Shown piece after piece: positions 4,353 to 21,060 of a stretch of 54,321 nucleotides of DNA. The notes below the pieces were generated by a model, which had not been told where the DNA came from, did no database searches, and was given only the letters and a program-made list of their open reading frames with translations. Positions within the stretch are counted from its first letter, which is position 1, and each line of letters begins with the position of its first letter. The position numbers and the translations under genes are program-made. This DNA is from a virus, in UHGV virus genome UHGV-0135730; one strand, written 5' to 3'.

Positions 4353-4654
4353 TTTTCACCTCTTAGCATCCAATTCACATCGCATTTAATTGCGAATACC
4401 TTAACAGGATCAGGGCCGAACAATGGATGTATGATTGTTTTCACTTCATAGCCAAAATAAGGTAGGTCTATAATCCGGTGTTTTTCGTGTCCTGCCGGAT
4501 AACCCCATTTAATGAACAAACGTTCATACTCCCGACCTTCCAGGCGCTTGCGCCAGTAGTCATTATAAAGCCGGTATTCCTCCACCTTCTTTCCCGCACG
4601 GATAGCGTGGAAGTATTCTCCTTTTAAATTCAAATGCAGGTGTTTACTTGCCAT
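4349..4654 (-). CDS. ASCH-domain-like protein
   Basis: GxKxxExR-type motif (IRAGKKVEEYR) typical of ASCH/PUA-like fold; start at MASKHL. Confidence 0.45.
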   Translation of the reverse strand: MASKHLHLNLKGEYFHAIRAGKKVEEYRLYNDYWRKRLEGREYERLFIKWGYPAGHEKHRIIDLPYFGYEVKTIIHPLFGPDPVKVFAIKCDVNWMLRGEK

Positions 4655-4913
4655 CGCTATGATCCTGTAAACAGTCGTTATAGCCTTCAATGTATCCAGT
4701 TAACCCAGTGTTGCTAACAGACCAGTCAGCCGAACGGCGCTTGATGGCCTTGTCTATAGTCATTTCATCGCCCTGGCCGCCTGGCTCAATGTATTTTCTC
4801 AAATCCCTTGCTATCCATTCCCTTAGCTGTTGCGTATCACTGAGCACACGCGCCGTCAGTGTCAGTTCGTTAACCAGCTTTGCAAATAGATGTTCTTTTA
4901 ATTTAGGCTTCAT
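4644..4913 (-). CDS. Hypothetical protein
   Basis: 89 aa ORF. Confidence 0.4.
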   Translation of the reverse strand: MKPKLKEHLFAKLVNELTLTARVLSDTQQLREWIARDLRKYIEPGGQGDEMTIDKAIKRRSADWSVSNTGLTGYIEGYNDCLQDHSDGK

Positions 4914-14358: not shown

Positions 14359-14649
14359 TTAATGGTAACGGACTTTATCCAGGGGTTTCTCCCCTAAATG
14401 GCGTGGTTGCGTTGCGTGGTAGTAGCTGCCACTTTCATTTTCCGTATACCATTTTACTGATCCTTTGCGACGTTCTTTTTTGCCATCTGGCTTGCATCTT
14501 TCGTCACTTGCCATTCGAATGGCTTTTTCCACATTGTCAGTTTTATTAATTGCAGGTGATGATTTTCTTTCGTTTTCTCTTTTTATCCTTCTGCGTTCCC
14601 TGGCATTTATTTTGCTATCACATTTACCATATATAATTGTAACGCTCAT
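14359..14649 (-). CDS. Arg-rich basic protein, candidate N-like antiterminator
   Basis: First gene after the pL-like promoter and a 340-nt leader; N-terminal arginine-rich motif NARERRRIKRENERK resembles N-family ARM. Confidence 0.4.
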   Translation of the reverse strand: MSVTIIYGKCDSKINARERRRIKRENERKSSPAINKTDNVEKAIRMASDERCKPDGKKERRKGSVKWYTENESGSYYHATQPRHLGEKPLDKVRYH

Positions 14650-15107: not shown

Positions 15108-15145
15108 TGTTTTTTCGAACAAAGAAAAGCCGCCACCAGGCGGCT
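15108..15145 (-). terminator. Rho-independent terminator after repressor gene
   Basis: Hairpin AGCCGCC-ACCA-GGCGGCT followed by T-rich run on minus strand. Confidence 0.6.
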
Positions 15146-15150
15146 AATGT

Positions 15151-15798
15151 TTATGGCAGGTTTACGATCTTCGCATCAACAACCACGCCAATGATTTTTG
15201 ACTCTGGATTCATAGGGATCGGCGGATACAACGGATTCAGTGAACGCAAAAGTTTTCGGCCTCCATCAATAATCAACTGTTTAAACGTAGGTATCTGCCC
15301 TTCCTCCAGTTGTGCTATAACAAGTTTTCCGTCAATAGCTGGCGCGTGCGGGTCAACGAGTATCATAGTCCCCGCCGGGATGCTTAACCCCTGCGGTGCG
15401 TTCATTGATTCACCTTTAGCAACCAGCCAATAACTATCATCCGAACAAATAACGCTAGTAGCAACGTGTGGCAATGTTGATCGGTGTGTGCCTTCCATAT
15501 TGTTTGCTACATCCTTCCAGTCAACAACCGGGTAACTGCCTAAATCACGCGGTGGCGCTCCCGACAACGTGTTAGAAACAGAATCATCAATGACCATTCC
15601 GTCATGAGTAACAGTAAATTGCCGACGCCCAAGCGCCCGCATGATACGCGCAATATCTTCAAGATTCGGCTCACGGCGACCGTTCAGCCAGTGAGAAAGG
15701 CCGCCTTTGGTTATCCCCATAAGATCAGCCAATGAATCCTGGCTCATGCCCTGCGCCCGCATGAGTTGTTTTGCTAAGTCATACCATTTTGTTTTCAT
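15151..15798 (-). CDS. CI-like prophage repressor (HTH plus S24 LexA-like peptidase)
   Basis: N-terminal HTH (QDSLADLMGITKGGLSHWLNG), C-terminal S24 domain with GESM serine motif. Confidence 0.85.
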   Translation of the reverse strand: MKTKWYDLAKQLMRAQGMSQDSLADLMGITKGGLSHWLNGRREPNLEDIARIMRALGRRQFTVTHDGMVIDDSVSNTLSGAPPRDLGSYPVVDWKDVANNMEGTHRSTLPHVATSVICSDDSYWLVAKGESMNAPQGLSIPAGTMILVDPHAPAIDGKLVIAQLEEGQIPTFKQLIIDGGRKLLRSLNPLYPPIPMNPESKIIGVVVDAKIVNLP

Positions 15799-15857
15799 GT
15801 CGCTACCCTATAACCTAAAAAATTTTGATGCAAGTCACAAAACGTGTTTTTCAAGCC

Positions 15858-15885
15858 TTGACCTGTTAGCGCCATTATGTAAACT
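15858..15885 (+). promoter_or_regulatory. Early rightward promoter (pR-like) within operator region
   Basis: TTGACC-16-TAAACT; flanked by TTGATGCAAG / CTTGCAATGATGCAAGG operator-like repeats. Confidence 0.45.
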
Positions 15886-15961
15886 TGCTGACAAGGTAAA
15901 GCCATACTTGCAATGATGCAAGGAAAAAGATAAGGGAAAGCACAAAAAGGCCGACGCCTTA

Positions 15962-15995
15962 AGCTCTTTAAAAATCCGGTGTCGCTGCGAAGCGA
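15962..15995 (+). promoter_or_regulatory. Candidate nutR (boxA-like plus short hairpin)
   Basis: AGCTCTTTA followed by hairpin TCGC-TGCGAA-GCGA in the rightward leader. Confidence 0.25.
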
Positions 15996-16103
15996 AAAAC
16001 AAATATCACGCAACGGCGGGATCTGTTGAGCGGTCAGTCACTGCTATCTAATGCTAATGGGATGCCCGCCCGCGCGTTCACTCTAACCATAGGAGAAAAG
16101 AAT

Positions 16104-16349
16104 ATGTATTACGTGCGCAAGGCTTTTGATATTCGCCTGAATAACAATGATCCGGCGCAAAAACTCATCTTAATTGCACTGGCAACAAAGGCCGGATGCA
16201 ACGGCAAAAGCGAAGTAACGCCAGAAGAGATCGCGGAAATGTGCGAAATTTCGTTACGCGATACTATCTCTGCACTGCATCAACTGAAAAGAAGCGGCCT
16301 AATCAGCCAGCTGCCAGGTTTCTTCTGTGTTTATCAGTTAATGTTTTAG
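16104..16349 (+). CDS. HTH protein, paralog of replication-initiator N-terminal domain (possible Cro/cII-like regulator)
   Basis: First rightward gene, AGGAGA RBS; LILIALATKAGCNGKSEVTPEEIAEMCEISLRDTISALHQLKRSGLI parallels N-terminus of 16356-17363 product. Confidence 0.55.
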   Translation: MYYVRKAFDIRLNNNDPAQKLILIALATKAGCNGKSEVTPEEIAEMCEISLRDTISALHQLKRSGLISQLPGFFCVYQLMF

Positions 16350-16355
16350 TTCGTC

Positions 16356-17363
16356 ATGAGGTTAATGCTTATGAGTATGCGGCTAATGGTAGAGGTCTTC
16401 CATACTGAGGTTGGCGACCCAATGCACAAACTGGTGCTGTTGAAGTTGGCTGATAACGCTAATGATAACGGCGAGTGTTACCCTTCTTACCATCACATAG
16501 CAAAGGAGTGTGAGATCAGCAAAAGAACAGCTATGAGGGCTGTAGACTCACTTTGTGAAAAAGGGTTGTTGATTAAACAACCAAGATATTTAATCGGAGG
16601 AAAAGAGCAAACTAGTAATTTCTATGTAATAGTCCTTCCGTCATTGCATGGTAGTGTCACTATGACACCGGGGGTAGTGACACAGAGTCACCAGGGTAGT
16701 GACACAGAGTCACCGGGGGTAGTGTCACAGAGTCACCCTAACCAGTCATATATAACCAGTAAAGAGAACATTAAAAACAATACACTCCGTGTATTGGAAA
16801 AAGACCGGTCTATCAGCGAAGAAGATCGGGAGGTTAATCTGGCGGCATTGCGTTGCCTGGCCTTCTACAACGACAAGGCAGGATGCAAATGTCGTGATGC
16901 AAAGCCATTCGTAGAACTACTGACAGAAACAAAAACACGTAAAGCGTATACGGAGGATGAAATCACATTAGTGATTGAGTGGGCTTTAACACAATGGCGT
17001 AGCCGTGGTGGAACACCTAAGCCTATAAACATTTGCCGGGTAACTAAATTTGATGGGTATCTGGCTGACGCTGAAAAATGGCACAAACTGTCAGCCACTG
17101 CAAACGCTGCCGACGTAGTGGAGGCATTTAACAGCACGTTTGATGGCCTGTTGCCACCTGCCGAACTGGATCGGGATCTTGAACGCAAGATTTATGCGTT
17201 CACTGACTACCTGAAAGACAAAAGCATCAACGGCTTTGTCGCCTACTTTGAAACGTTCAAAAACACGGCTTCAGATTTTTACTTCGGCAATGGCTTCACA
17301 GCGACACTTGATTTCCTGCTTAAACCAAAAACGCTACGTGATACACGATGTGGCGCTCTTTGA
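16356..17363 (+). CDS. Replication initiator (lambda O-like, winged-HTH N-terminus)
   Basis: HTH replication-protein-like N-terminus; iterons within coding sequence as in lambda O; start may be ATG 16371. Confidence 0.7.
   Translation: MRLMLMSMRLMVEVFHTEVGDPMHKLVLLKLADNANDNGECYPSYHHIAKECEISKRTAMRAVDSLCEKGLLIKQPRYLIGGKEQTSNFYVIVLPSLHGSVTMTPGVVTQSHQGSDTESPGVVSQSHPNQSYITSKENIKNNTLRVLEKDRSISEEDREVNLAALRCLAFYNDKAGCKCRDAKPFVELLTETKTRKAYTEDEITLVIEWALTQWRSRGGTPKPINICRVTKFDGYLADAEKWHKLSATANAADVVEAFNSTFDGLLPPAELDRDLERKIYAFTDYLKDKSINGFVAYFETFKNTASDFYFGNGFTATLDFLLKPKTLRDTRCGAL
16650..16737. repeat. Origin iterons (4 direct repeats, about 22-bp period) inside initiator gene
   Basis: GGTAGTGACACAGAGTCACC at 16673, 16695, 16718 plus degenerate copy at 16650; each contains GTGAC/GTCAC inverted half-sites; AT-rich stretch follows. 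Confidence 0.8.
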
Positions 17364-17496: not shown

Positions 17497-17598
17497 ATGG
17501 ACGGTAAACACGTTTTCGCCCTGGCCTTTGCCATCGCTGCTGCAATCGCTGTTAACGTCGCTTTGTTCGGCGGTTTGTTCCTTCTTATCAATCCATAA
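17497..17598 (+). CDS. Small hydrophobic peptide (33 aa)
   Basis: MDGKHVFALAFAIAAAIAVNVALFGGLFLLINP; GAGAGGA RBS; intergenic between initiator and antirepressor. Confidence 0.4.
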   Translation: MDGKHVFALAFAIAAAIAVNVALFGGLFLLINP

Positions 17599-17730
17599 CC
17601 TTCATACCAGTCTGTAAATCAAAAATTAGCCACCTGAAAGCGCCTCTGACGCAATAAGACACTGCAACCTGTGCAAACGGGTTACGCGGTGGGATTTTTG
17701 CGTTGTAGCGCGTTTTACGGAGAAATTACA

Positions 17731-18474
17731 ATGTCTGAGTTGATGTGTTTTAATTTTGATGACAATAAAATCACTGCTGTAATTTATGATGGTAAACCTG
17801 CTTTTGTTGCAATGGATGTGGCGCGGGCGCTTGGGTACGCTACGCCGCAAGATGCCATTAAAAAGCATTGTAAGTCATTGATAAAAATAAAATGTCGTGA
17901 AATGCGACATTTGGGTTTCGAACCAATCCCGCAAGGCGTAACGCTAATCCATGAATCAGATGTTTACCGCCTGGTGATGCGATCAAAAGTAGAATTGGCT
18001 GAGCGCTTCCAGGATTGGGTGTGCGAGGATGTTCTCCCTGCTTTGCGTGAAAATGGACATTACGGCTTTAAACCAGCTTTGCCGGATTTCACTGACCCAG
18101 TTGTTGCGGCTCGCGCATGGGCGGATGAGGTAGAGCAAAAACTATTAGCACAGAAGGAAGTTGATCGTCTGGCGCTGGAAAACAAGGAATTAGCGCCAAA
18201 AGCGGCTGTCTGTGATGCGATTGTAAGAAACGAACAGCATCGCAACGCGACACAGGTTGCCAAGCCTTTGGGTATGACTGCTACGCAACTCAACAAAAAA
18301 CTTGAACAGGTCGACGTCTACGATACGCGGATTAAGCGAGGCGGTCGTATGTTCAAGCAGTGGTTCGTAGACAAAGGCTACGGAGTGGTAAAATGTTCGG
18401 CTGAAGGTTACGTCCAATCACTATTTACTGCTAAGGGTCAGATTTGGGTGTCTGAACTTTTTGCGTGTAAGTAG
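17731..18474 (+). CDS. Antirepressor (Bro-N domain plus C-terminal KilA-C-like region)
   Basis: Bro-N-like N-terminus (FNFDDNKITAVIYDGKPAFVAMDVARALGY); GGAG RBS. Confidence 0.65.
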   Translation: MSELMCFNFDDNKITAVIYDGKPAFVAMDVARALGYATPQDAIKKHCKSLIKIKCREMRHLGFEPIPQGVTLIHESDVYRLVMRSKVELAERFQDWVCEDVLPALRENGHYGFKPALPDFTDPVVAARAWADEVEQKLLAQKEVDRLALENKELAPKAAVCDAIVRNEQHRNATQVAKPLGMTATQLNKKLEQVDVYDTRIKRGGRMFKQWFVDKGYGVVKCSAEGYVQSLFTAKGQIWVSELFACK

Positions 18475-18507
18475 GTATACATTTTGTTAACTGGAGGGAT
18501 TAACATT

Positions 18508-19626
18508 ATGTCGCAAAGAAAAATCAGCGATGAGCAATTGATCGCTGAATACAACAACGGTTTAACGTACAAACAGATTGCTGAGAAGTACGGCATGTCT
18601 AAACGCAATGTCGAGCGCCTGGGCGCAAAACTGGCGAAACGTGGTTTATTATCAACACGCCGCGCGCCTGGTTTTGGCGTCAATGGCGAGTCGTTGCTAG
18701 TCGATAAAAACGGCAATGTGATCATGCGCTGGATTAAAACAGCCCGTGACCGCGACGAAATGGAACAGCTAATGGAAGCGGCCCGCGACGCTTTCACGGA
18801 TGAAATACCACGCGCGGAGGCTGTGCCAGTGCCTGAAATTGATTTTCAAAAAAGCCTGGCACTTTACCCGGTATTTGACCTGCATATCGGGGCGCTTGCT
18901 CATAAAGCTGAATGCGGAGAGAGCTACGATACTGGGATCGCTGAGCGCGTGTTGAATGACTTCTTTGACTACGCTGTTGGCGCTGCTCCGATGTCTGAAA
19001 AAGCAGTACTGCTCCTCGGTGGCGATCTACTTCATTCTGACGGTATGGTCCCGGTGACGCCAACAAGCGGGCACATTCTTGATCAAGATAGTCGCTACGC
19101 AAAACTTGTTTATGTGGCGATCCGGTCTGTCCGGCGGGCGGTAGGAAAGATGTTGTTAAATCATAAAGATGTTGAAATCCAGGTGTTATCAGGCAATCAC
19201 GATCAGTCGGGCATGATTTGGCTACGTGCGGCGCTGGCGGCTTTTTACGAAGATGAACCGCGCGTGACGGTTGATGTATCACCTGCTATTGTCCACCACA
19301 CACAGTACGGTAAAACATTCCTTGCATATCATCACGGTCATACTATCAAAAAACCTGAAAATTTGTTGTCTGCCTGCGTATCTGACTGGCGTGAGGATTT
19401 CGGCAAGTCGGCGGCTGTTTACGCTCACACTGGACATCTACATCACCAATCTGTTGTTGAAACATCATTGGGGATCGTTGAACACCACGGCACGTTAGCT
19501 GGCAAAGACGCATATTCGACTAATGGCGGCTGGCGGTCGCGGCGGCTGGCAGCGGTGATTATTTACAGCCCGGATCATGGGGAAATTGGGCGCTTTGTTT
19601 ATTACCCTGAATATTCCATTTTGTAA
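18508..19626 (+). CDS. HTH domain fused to calcineurin-like metallophosphoesterase
   Basis: N-terminal HTH (LTYKQIAEKYGMSKRNVERL); phosphoesterase motifs DLH, GGDLLH, GNHD, HHGH, GHLHH in canonical order. Confidence 0.6.
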   Translation: MSQRKISDEQLIAEYNNGLTYKQIAEKYGMSKRNVERLGAKLAKRGLLSTRRAPGFGVNGESLLVDKNGNVIMRWIKTARDRDEMEQLMEAARDAFTDEIPRAEAVPVPEIDFQKSLALYPVFDLHIGALAHKAECGESYDTGIAERVLNDFFDYAVGAAPMSEKAVLLLGGDLLHSDGMVPVTPTSGHILDQDSRYAKLVYVAIRSVRRAVGKMLLNHKDVEIQVLSGNHDQSGMIWLRAALAAFYEDEPRVTVDVSPAIVHHTQYGKTFLAYHHGHTIKKPENLLSACVSDWREDFGKSAAVYAHTGHLHHQSVVETSLGIVEHHGTLAGKDAYSTNGGWRSRRLAAVIIYSPDHGEIGRFVYYPEYSIL

Positions 19627-19644: not shown

Positions 19645-21060
19645 ATGGTAACTGAGCAAATAAACTCACTACGGCAGGAACGTGAAGCGTCAGTTATCGG
19701 CGGGCTGCTGTTAGGTGGCCTCACTCCTAACGCGCAAGATGTTCTCGCCACTCTGGATCCTGAAGTGTTCACGATCTCGCTTTACAAACGTGCGTTTGAA
19801 GTTATCCGGGCGCAAGCCAGAAACAGGAATCTTATCGACGCGTTATTGGTTGGCGATGAGATTGGGAATGAAAACTTTGTTCCTCTGATGCAAACGGCGC
19901 GATCGTGTCCTTCTGCCGCCAACCTGAAGGGATACGCACAGCTACTACGTGAAGAGCACCAGCGGCGGCAGATGTTGGAACTCATCGACGATATGCGCTA
20001 CAAGCTGGAAACGGGGACGCTTGAAGTCGTCAAAGAGACGATGAAAGATTTTGATTCCCGGTACTCAAAATTAAAAGTAACTAAAGACAAGATCATTCCT
20101 GTTCTGTTGCGCGATGCGGTACAGGAATACACGGAGGTTTTAAGCAAGCGCATGGAATGCGGTGTCAATTCTGACAACATCAAAACAGGGATAGAACCAC
20201 TCGACGAAATGTTAGGCGGCATTAACGCTACTGATTTGGTGCTTCTCGCCGGACGTCCTGGGTCTGGTAAATCTGCGTTGGCGCTTGCAATTGCCCGCGA
20301 GGCTGCCGAACGCCCTTACCCTGGCGGCGAAGGTCAGCGGGTAGGCGTTTTGCTGTTTACGCTTGAAATGTCACTCGATCAGATGACTGAGCGGGCTATA
20401 GCTGGCGCTGGCAATTTATCAACTGACTGCCTGCGCAATCCGGTAAAACTTGATGATGAGGGGTGGGCGCATGTCGGCCAGGGTATGAGCGCACTTGCTA
20501 ATCTTGATGTGTGGATCGTTGACGCGTCGCAGTTAACGGTTGAGGAAATACGCGCAACAACGGAACGCATGAAGCAGGATCACCCGAACCTGGGTATGGT
20601 AATGATTGACTATATCGGGTTAATGAAGCTGGCTAAAGCCGAACGTCACGATCTCGCCGTGGGGCAATTATCGTGGTCGTTAAAGATGATGGCTAAAGAA
20701 TTGCGCGTACCAGTGTTGGCGCTGGCGCAATTGTCACGCCGAGTTGAGGAACGACCAAACAAGCGCCCTAATAATTCTGATCTTCGTGATTCTGGCAACC
20801 TTGAGCAAGATGCCGACAGGATAATCATGGTTTACCGCGATGGATATTACGACGAACAGTCTGTTGCCCGCGAATATATGGAAATCATTGTGTCAAAAAA
20901 CCGTCATGGTAAGTCTGGAACTGTTTACCAGCGGTTTGATGACAACGGTAATATCTTGCCATGCGACCAGGCGCGCGCAGCCGCAGCGTGCATTCAGTCA
21001 ATGAATCATCGCACAAGCCGTTTTAACCAACGAAACAATCAGAATAACGCATCTTTTTAA
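19645..21060 (+). CDS. DnaB-family replicative helicase
   Basis: Walker A GRPGSGKS, RecA-like C-terminal domain; 471 aa. Confidence 0.85.
   Translation: MVTEQINSLRQEREASVIGGLLLGGLTPNAQDVLATLDPEVFTISLYKRAFEVIRAQARNRNLIDALLVGDEIGNENFVPLMQTARSCPSAANLKGYAQLLREEHQRRQMLELIDDMRYKLETGTLEVVKETMKDFDSRYSKLKVTKDKIIPVLLRDAVQEYTEVLSKRMECGVNSDNIKTGIEPLDEMLGGINATDLVLLAGRPGSGKSALALAIAREAAERPYPGGEGQRVGVLLFTLEMSLDQMTERAIAGAGNLSTDCLRNPVKLDDEGWAHVGQGMSALANLDVWIVDASQLTVEEIRATTERMKQDHPNLGMVMIDYIGLMKLAKAERHDLAVGQLSWSLKMMAKELRVPVLALAQLSRRVEERPNKRPNNSDLRDSGNLEQDADRIIMVYRDGYYDEQSVAREYMEIIVSKNRHGKSGTVYQRFDDNGNILPCDQARAAAACIQSMNHRTSRFNQRNNQNNASF

Follow-up and report, generated by a model that had tools for sequence, protein, structure and literature searches.

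We analysed the phage genome UHGV-0135730 (54,321 nucleotides; hereafter the window, meaning this whole stretch at its full length) with respect to a replication initiator gene and the small gene directly upstream of it. The origin of replication very probably lies inside the initiator gene, in the manner of phage lambda: four iterons are located in the linker-coding part of the gene and are followed by an AT-rich tract and a palindrome (Table 1). The small gene is an accessory, separately exchangeable relative of HTH_36-type initiators that encodes their DNA-binding domain only, and it is not a Cro. We lean towards a combined interpretation in which this origin is accompanied by a role of the small gene in the replication module.

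By nucleotide identity, the window is a member of the published mEp-immI (mEp021-like) temperate coliphages. Over the 2.4 kb around the two genes, identity is 96.4% to Escherichia phage mEp010 and 90.7% to mEp021, and gene order is shared in both cases. Among 5,426 complete E. coli genomes, 35 have the same region as part of a prophage. The mEp-immI phages have been described as Nus-dependent, non-lambdoid temperate coliphages in a study that covers the Rep021 repressor, the N-like antiterminator Gp17 with three nut sites, the integrases and the virion (PMC11893012). The small gene corresponds to gp14 of mEp021 and the initiator gene to gp13. For comparison we used 41 related loci, consisting of 5 GenBank/RefSeq matches, 32 loci from IMG/VR, 3 further E. 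coli prophages and the window itself.

The iteron GGTAGTGACACAGAGTCACC is present as an exact copy at 16673–16692 and at 16695–16714 and with one mismatch at 16718–16737, while no match was expected by chance (100 shuffles). The remaining copy, GGTAGTGTCACTATGACACC at 16650–16669, is diverged (5 mismatches) and more palindromic; copies 2–4 hold the dyad GTGAC-N5-GTCAC. The spacing is 23/22/23 bp, and no further copy was found anywhere in the 54 kb of the window. The iterons code for initiator residues 94–123, in the linker between the winged-helix and the C-terminal domain, and read successively as GSVTMTP, GVVTQSH, GSDTESP and GVVSQSH. Because spacings of 22 and 23 bp are not multiples of three, the reading alternates between two frames, which argues that the repeat is maintained as DNA and not as peptide. 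GC content is 0.32 over 16740–16799, and the AT-rich tract holds two AACCAGT repeats (16740–16746 and 16754–16760). A first-pass annotation, made from the sequence of the window without database searches, had described four linker repeats with a spacing of about 22 bp followed by an AT-rich stretch, and this description was confirmed.

The iterons vary together with the recognition helix of the initiator. The helix SKRTAMRAVDS pairs with the iteron GTGACACAGAGTCAC, NKSTAMRAIEA with GTGGCACAAAGCAAC and (S/G)KSTAMRA(V/I)DA with GTGTCA(C/G)AG(T/A)GACAC. These three iteron variants match the helix variants SKRT..DS, NKST..EA and (S/G)KST..DA in 14 of 14 diverse initiators, and the pairing had no exception in all type A and type C loci. 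The co-variation is what would be expected if the iterons were specific binding sites of the cognate initiator. Together with the selection at the DNA level, it also speaks for the lambda-type origin that the first-pass annotation had proposed.

Between the window and mEp021, the synonymous divergence (dS) was 1.67 for the DNA-binding domain of the initiator, whereas the small gene reached 0.23 and the C-terminal domain 0.18. This jump suggests that the DNA-binding domain and its iterons move as a unit. Homology to mEp515 and to the WCHEC025970 prophage ends at 16099, 4 nt before the ATG of the small gene, and restarts at 16842; the substitute cassette of these two has a small gene of type B, a Lin1244_N domain and, with a spacing of 11 bp, four GGGTCATGA repeats. 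Most relatives have the stretch between these boundaries swapped out and the C-terminal domain kept, the latter with more than 91% identity in 37 of the 38 loci scored and 70% in the other one, whatever the N-terminal domain. These comparisons show an exchangeable cassette to be the carrier of origin specificity. Within the linker, length varies in units of 15 amino acids (45 bp, two iterons), resulting in 2, 4 or 6 iterons. For comparison, lambda has 4 iterons and the Stx phages have 6, with 13 extra residues (PMC7466680).

The palindrome ATACAC-N3-GTGTAT is kept in cassettes of types A, B and C alike, always equally far from the C-terminal domain, and is translated in differing frames (NTLRVL vs YTTCIV); the E21845 and N1286 prophages have a different palindrome at the same place. 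In SfV orf39, the iterons have the same left half GGGGGTAGTG and three AACCAGTCA repeats to their right, and GAACCAGTCA occurs three times at the place equivalent to the AT-rich tract, coding for different amino acids. Immediately right of the iterons, two copies of AACCAGT(CA) were counted in the window (16740–16760) and three in SfV (L049 2868–2908); HTH_36-type initiators may have such repeats as a conserved element of their origins.

It is highly improbable that the repeats are a repetitive coding linker only and that replication starts elsewhere. Such an explanation would be in keeping with the modest AT-richness and with the DnaA boxes near the iterons, which occur at chance level only. 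It is opposed by the maintenance of the repeat unit in two frames, by the co-variation of iterons and recognition helix, by the different repeat that the non-homologous cassette has at the same place and by the conservation of the palindrome across frames. The architecture is, moreover, that of the lambda and Stx origins (PMC7466680).

The initiator matched HTH_36 (PF13730) with 55.5 bits (gathering cut-off 25) and PHROG families annotated as 'replication initiation O-like', and did not match Phage_rep_O (PF04492, the lambda O family) at E ≤ 0.1. By sequence, the protein thus lies outside the lambda O family, although its mode of action would be that of lambda O. Its start codon is the ATG at 16371, which has GAGG 9 nt before it and is also the start annotated in mEp010; two further ATGs in the same frame, at 16356 and 16365, are less probable as start codons. 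An AlphaFold2 model, which is indicative only (shallow multiple sequence alignment, mean predicted local distance difference test [pLDDT] score of 55), had a winged helix at residues 1–89 and a helical domain at residues 150–240 (pLDDT ~80). Residues 90–147 appeared disordered, with pLDDT below 35 and no secondary structure, and include everything coded by the iterons, the AT-rich tract and the palindrome. The C-terminal domain had no Pfam match; presumably it recruits the helicase.

The small gene has a strong Shine-Dalgarno sequence (AGGAG) 8 nt upstream of its ATG at 16104. Its frame is open for 26 further codons upstream from a TTG (16026–16103), in type A and type B phages alike, and some gene callers therefore report versions of 106–111 amino acids (P0001, P0008); the position of the AGGAG makes the short form of 81 amino acids more likely. 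The ratio of non-synonymous to synonymous substitution rates was 0.06–0.08 among type A variants (dS up to 1.07) and 0.18 between type B variants. Between the window and the related locus L008, the small genes differed by 0 non-synonymous and 8 synonymous changes. We conclude that the small gene is a real gene under strong purifying selection.

In a pairwise BLASTP alignment, the small protein was 37% identical to initiator residues 21–79 over 59 amino acids (E 2e-10), and thus is a paralog of the initiator's winged-helix domain, as the first-pass annotation had recognized. It also matched the N-termini of phage initiator families (phrog_4617, 2.3e-10), with no family of another type among its Pfam and PHROG matches, and its best matches in cultured phages were initiator N-termini. 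The type B small protein of mEp515 scored 32.5 bits against HTH_36, above the cut-off of 25. Against PF04492, the small protein scored 13.8 bits, below the cut-off of 28.7. AlphaFold2 returned a winged-helix-like model with four helices (pLDDT 67.6); a fold search with this model found generic winged-helix regulators only (Lrp, LexA and MarR, all with E > 0.4), and sequence searches of the PDB found no relative. A profile search among 1.84 billion representatives yielded only 10 proteins at E ≤ 1e-3, indicating that the family is narrow, and a scan of genome contigs gave one distant Gemmobacter initiator only.

Several variants of the small protein were found. Type A has 81 amino acids; types B1, B2 and B3 have 84–85 and are 34–38% identical to type A. 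B1 and B2 are 62% identical to each other and mosaic in the helix-turn-helix half, and the half comprising helix 2, turn, helix 3 and wing is the most variable part among close relatives. An A/B chimera (L046 4001–4246) resembles type B in its N-terminus and recognition helix and type A in its C-terminus; it is paired with an HTH_36 initiator and indicates that recombination has taken place within the small gene. In the Ecol_244, KKa019 and PAR prophages the gene is absent and the leader Shine-Dalgarno sequence is joined straight to the initiator gene; at the population level, the small gene is thus dispensable. A truncated type A form of 50 amino acids (P0006, ending ...EMCEIS) was present on 61 contigs, including complete E. 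coli chromosomes, and may represent a pseudogene or an interrupted gene in part of the prophages. The KKa019 prophage, which has no small gene upstream of its initiator gene, has an open reading frame for a winged-helix protein of 77 amino acids downstream of it (L040 ~4628–4861; MarR_2 6e-7, HTH_36 2e-4), in the slot that the antirepressor gene occupies in the window.

In a matrix of bit scores, the small proteins formed no clade apart from the initiator domains, suggesting repeated origin, and they stop exactly at the initiators' linker entry (...YVVMLPEE vs ...FYVIVLPSL). From these sequence features, the small proteins probably arose repeatedly as N-terminal domains that were orphaned when cassettes recombined into the linker/origin, and were selected thereafter. 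Both features, as well as the absence of the gene in some prophages and its truncated form, would also be compatible with a functionless leftover of a former initiator. The strong purifying selection makes this explanation very improbable. In addition, a length of 81–85 amino acids is kept across types that are 36% identical, the Shine-Dalgarno sequence is strong and the gene has been retained independently in distant phages.

The type of the small protein is independent of the iterons, of the operators and of the integrase. Iteron variants v1, v2 and v3, like both palindrome variants, occur together with identical type A small proteins. Two different small-protein variants were seen alongside iteron variant v2, and B-like recognition helices occur in combination with Lin1244-type and HTH_36-type origins alike. 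Across the loci, no single-nucleotide polymorphism in 15799–16099 was linked to the small-protein type. Phages with a type A small protein have integrase Ib (mEp021) or II (mEp010, E21845), and so do phages with type B (Ib in mEp515 and WCHEC025970; II in 09-0049, MLI107 and 127); integrase types were taken from Table 2 of PMC11893012.

Three candidate functions were set aside on these grounds. An excisionase-type first gene, following the logic of P2 Cox or 186 Apl, was ruled out by the independence from the integrase type. The first-pass annotation had considered binding to the iterons or to the operators. A competitor for the phage's own iterons with matched specificity is disfavoured, since the same small proteins occur with all three iteron variants and B-like helices 3 with both origin classes. 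Binding to the operators is disfavoured as well: divergent types share one repressor and operator region without type-specific polymorphisms, and three prophages do without the gene.

The same annotation had stated that the first rightward gene is not Cro-like and that a canonical cro is missing, with which our searches agree. A Pfam scan of 16104–16349 found no match to Cro, P22_Cro, HTH_3, Phage_CII or Phage_CP76. Between the promoter-like sites (15858–15917) and 16104 there was no Cro-like open reading frame, and the three reading frames of at least 40 amino acids in this interval had no Pfam match. The small protein resembles lambda and P22 Cro in being short, in having a DNA-binding fold and in being encoded first after a PR-like promoter, divergently from the CI/S24 repressor and with no other Cro-like reading frame at hand. 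It could therefore be a functional Cro that binds the operators and shuts off repressor synthesis and early transcription. We regard this as quite unlikely. The repressor is more than 90% identical in all 41 related loci and has one operator region, yet the small proteins range from 34 to 100% in identity, with types only 36–38% identical that differ in helix 3, or are absent; such variation and loss would not be expected of a Cro that has to recognise operators shared with a conserved repressor. No operator-region polymorphism segregates with the small-protein type, and the mosaic boundary groups the small gene with the origin cassette and not with the immunity region. Unlike lambda and P22 Cro, the small protein has a winged-helix, initiator-like fold without a sequence match to the Cro families. 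Finally, other phages have homologous small genes alongside bona fide P22_Cro genes.

Such coexistence was found in two prophages of Psychromonas sp. PT13, in which the gene order is CI, Cro (P22_Cro/YdaS), CP76 (CII-type), orf110, a small HTH_36 gene (92 amino acids) and the initiator gene. The small gene and the HTH_36 initiator gene overlap by 4 nt, and lambda P follows. The small protein is 42% identical to the N-terminus of its own initiator (E 2e-21), and the initiator linker has three repeats spaced by 21 bp. Two metagenomic contigs have the order Cro, orf, small HTH_36 gene, overlapping HTH_36 initiator gene and lambda P, and a third has P22_Cro, small gene and initiator gene. As in the window, a stand-alone paralog of the initiator domain is located directly upstream of an initiator with linker iterons. 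Unlike the window, these phages have Cro, a CII-type gene and lambda P, and the genes overlap by 4 nt; helix 3 reads RTAMR in both the small protein and the initiator of Psychromonas, compared with LRDTISA and KRTAMRA, respectively, in the window. The small gene thus recurs next to initiators elsewhere and travels with them in phages that already have Cro and CII, which suggests that it belongs to the replication module. Of the suggestion in the first-pass annotation that the small protein acts as a regulator or modulator, the looser notion of a replication modulator is plausible in the light of these pairs, and the binding to iterons or operators was not borne out. SfV orf38 was considered as a further paralog pair and rejected, as it is unrelated to the initiator. 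Our literature search found no paper on pairs of a stand-alone initiator domain and its initiator paralog.

Alternatively, the small protein might be a transcription regulator of its own cassette or of downstream genes. It would then either be Cop-like, an autoregulator that limits initiator synthesis, or CII-like, activating a leftward establishment promoter that overlaps the 5′ end of the small gene. In plasmid R1, CopB limits repA, and cII in lambda and the cop genes of plasmids are located directly upstream of the initiator gene, as the small gene is. If the target lay within the small gene itself, the lack of external co-variation would be accounted for. The 3′ end of the type B gene carries the Shine-Dalgarno sequence of the initiator gene, with the stop codon 2–3 nt from the next start or overlapping it. 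However, a promoter scan found no sigma-70-like site on either strand within 16104–16371, and no palindrome or direct repeat in the small gene survived the comparison of type A variants. With no Pfam match to Phage_CII or Phage_CP76, and with a CP76 (CII-type) gene present in addition in the Psychromonas prophages, we consider a regulator of this kind unlikely.

Under the combined interpretation of origin and replication-module role, derepression would allow transcription from the PR-like promoter past the nut site, yielding the small protein and then the initiator. The N-terminal winged helix of the initiator would bind the four iterons on one helix face, in the DNA coding for its own disordered linker. 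The AT-rich DNA beside the iterons would open, and the palindrome would complete the lambda-type origin. The conserved C-terminal domain would bring in the DnaB-type helicase of the phage, as expected from the type of module. The small protein, being the first product of the same transcript, most likely binds origin-type DNA and would be incapable of recruiting the helicase; it may thereby act as a modulator or blocker of initiation.

Several observations weigh against this interpretation. The type A small protein scored 20.4 bits against HTH_36, below the cut-off of 25, and the AlphaFold2 models of the small protein and of the initiator are both of modest confidence. The study of the phage group (PMC11893012) does not deal with gp13 or gp14, with iterons or with an origin. 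The absence of the gene from three prophages means that its role is non-essential or that those prophages are defective. The small protein showed no co-variation with iteron variant, origin class or palindrome variant, so that a direct role at its own origin lacks the expected signature, and a variable helix-turn-helix half is odd for a protein with a fixed DNA target. The adjacency to initiators, in turn, could reflect the origin of the gene from leftover domains after cassette exchange and not its function.

If the small protein does act in the replication module, a conserved feature of its own origin is a possible though doubtful target, and we give equal credence to the origins of rival HTH_36-type phages; the rest of the weight lies with some other target. 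Rival origins would be a better fit than the own origin for an accessory gene whose product has a variable recognition half and does not co-vary with anything else in the genome of the phage. The small protein might then be a weapon in phage–phage competition that occupies the iterons of rival HTH_36 phages and blocks their replication, although we judge this proposal as a whole to be unlikely. The rivals would be SfV/ST64B/Stx2c-like or other mEp-immI origin variants, met in co-infection or in the joint induction of several prophages. Competition of this kind would explain the accessory status of the gene and its variable, mosaic helix-turn-helix half. It would also explain the shuffling independent of own iterons, origin class, immunity and integrase, and the recurrence of orphan domains next to initiators in unrelated temperate phages. 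We know of no precedent for a small domain-only protein directed against rival origins.

Functional analogues are known from other systems, namely OBPC of UL9 in herpes simplex virus 1, the repressor forms of papillomavirus E2 and CopB of plasmid R1. These short proteins, which retain just the DNA-binding portion of a replication initiator or are encoded upstream of one, restrain initiation. They are made from the initiator gene or bind a defined promoter; the small protein differs from them in this and lacks co-variation with its own iterons.

The replication module as a whole resembles several known ones. It shares with lambda ori/O and Stx-phage O the origin in the middle of the initiator gene, a DNA-binding N-terminal and a partner-binding C-terminal domain, and an iteron number that varies in pairs with 13–15 residues added to the linker. 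As in lambda ori, four dyad iterons about two helical turns apart are followed by an AT-rich tract (PMC7466680). In contrast to lambda, the initiator belongs to HTH_36 and not to Phage_rep_O, the phage has its own DnaB-type helicase and neither lambda P nor a DnaC-type loader, and the operon has no cro and no cII and an extra stand-alone domain gene before the initiator gene. A palindrome is also part of the lambda origin. The P22 module (gene 18/gene 12) likewise combines an origin-binding initiator with a phage DnaB homolog instead of a loader; in the window, the initiator and helicase genes are separated by an antirepressor gene and an exonuclease-like gene. The HTH_36 N-terminal domain of the initiators of SfV (orf39), ST64B (sb42), mEp460, cdtI and Stx2c phages is 55% identical to that of the window, and the SfV-type genes have the same iteron left half and repeats to the right. 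They differ in having another C-terminal domain and, with an unrelated gene upstream in SfV, no paralog pair.

The repressor defines immunity group I, and immunity conferred by Rep021 of mEp021 has been shown (PMC11893012). The region between the repressor gene and the small gene is 305 bp long. Two perfect palindromes, CTTG-CTGA-CAAG (15884–15895) and CTTGCAATGATGCAAG (15907–15922), overlap the promoter-like sites and are candidate repressor operators; a repeat-tool comparison of the regions left and right of the repressor gene found no convincing shared operator motif. The boxA-like element and the hairpin downstream of the promoter-like sites are probably the nut site of the rightward operon. 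A nut site ('nutL') has been placed in the mEp021 intergenic region between gp14 and gp15 (PMC11893012). The leader from 15963 to 16099, up to the Shine-Dalgarno sequence, is almost invariant in the 41 loci and more strongly conserved than the promoter region, and the fold of the 216-nt leader was not unusually stable (z-score 0.09). A search for iteron-like sites in the promoter region gave only a 12-nt partial match at the start of the repressor gene (15798–15809), which occurs with all small-protein types and was judged to be due to chance.

The repressor gene, a terminator at 15128–15145 and the gene of the N-like antiterminator, which had a weak Pfam match to N_peptide (E 0.022), are co-oriented like cI-rex-N in lambda. 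Directly after the initiator gene, an open reading frame at 17499–17600 encodes 33 strongly hydrophobic amino acids (MDGKHVFALAFAIAAAIAVNVALFGGLFLLINP); a terminator-like hairpin (17556–17574) overlaps this frame, whose product is listed as hypothetical in the mEp010 annotation. The first slot after the initiator gene, held by the antirepressor gene in the window, is variable among relatives and encodes a zinc-ribbon protein, Rha, BRO or a hypothetical protein. An Rfam scan of the whole window gave no match.

Table 1. Coordinates of the origin, the small gene and surrounding features in the window
Feature	Position	Strand	Remarks
N-like antiterminator (Gp17 homolog)	14359–14649	−	Arginine-rich motif RERRRIKRENERK
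CI/LexA-type repressor	15151–15798	−	Pfam HTH_3 4.8e-13, Peptidase_S24 1.5e-18
Two overlapping sigma-70-like promoter sites, PR-equivalent	15858–15917	+	Consensus scan
boxA-like GCTCTTTAAAAA and hairpin with 5-bp stem and GCGA loop	15963–15974 (boxA-like), 15982–15995 (hairpin)	+	Sequence and fold
Exchangeable mosaic cassette: small gene, initiator DNA-binding domain, iterons, AT-rich tract	16100–16841	+	
Small stand-alone winged-helix protein, 81 amino acids	16104–16349	+	First gene of the rightward operon
Replication initiator, 330 amino acids	16371–17363	+	Pfam HTH_36 5.1e-15, PHROG families
Four iterons, predicted initiator binding sites	16650–16737 (starts 16650, 16673, 16695, 16718)		
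AT-rich tract, presumed unwinding region	16738–16777		27% GC, counted from the sequence
Origin palindrome CAATACAC-TCC-GTGTATTG	16778–16796		8-bp arms
Conserved C-terminal domain of the initiator	16842–17363	+	
Bro-N/ANT antirepressor	17731–18474		Between initiator and helicase genes
380-amino-acid protein with N-terminal HTH and phrog_704 'DNA repair exonuclease' body	18484–19626		
Phage DnaB-type replicative helicase	19645–21060	+	Pfam DnaB_C 5.1e-75, DnaB 1.8e-11

An origin inside the initiator gene is of a textbook kind, and the phage group has already been published. New are the exchangeable origin-specificity cassette, the lack of a Cro at the canonical place and a selected, recurrent stand-alone initiator-domain gene that does not track its own origin. 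In human-gut E. coli, the mEp-immI phages reportedly match lambdoid phages in frequency; our analysis locates their origin and its parts, i.e. the iterons, the AACCAGT repeats and the palindrome. The missing Cro at the usual position prompts one to ask what makes the lytic decision final. The natural variants of the small gene (A, B1–B3, the chimera and absence) provide ready test material. If it is true that the small protein restrains its own or a rival origin, it would offer a simple, engineerable control of phage or plasmid replication.

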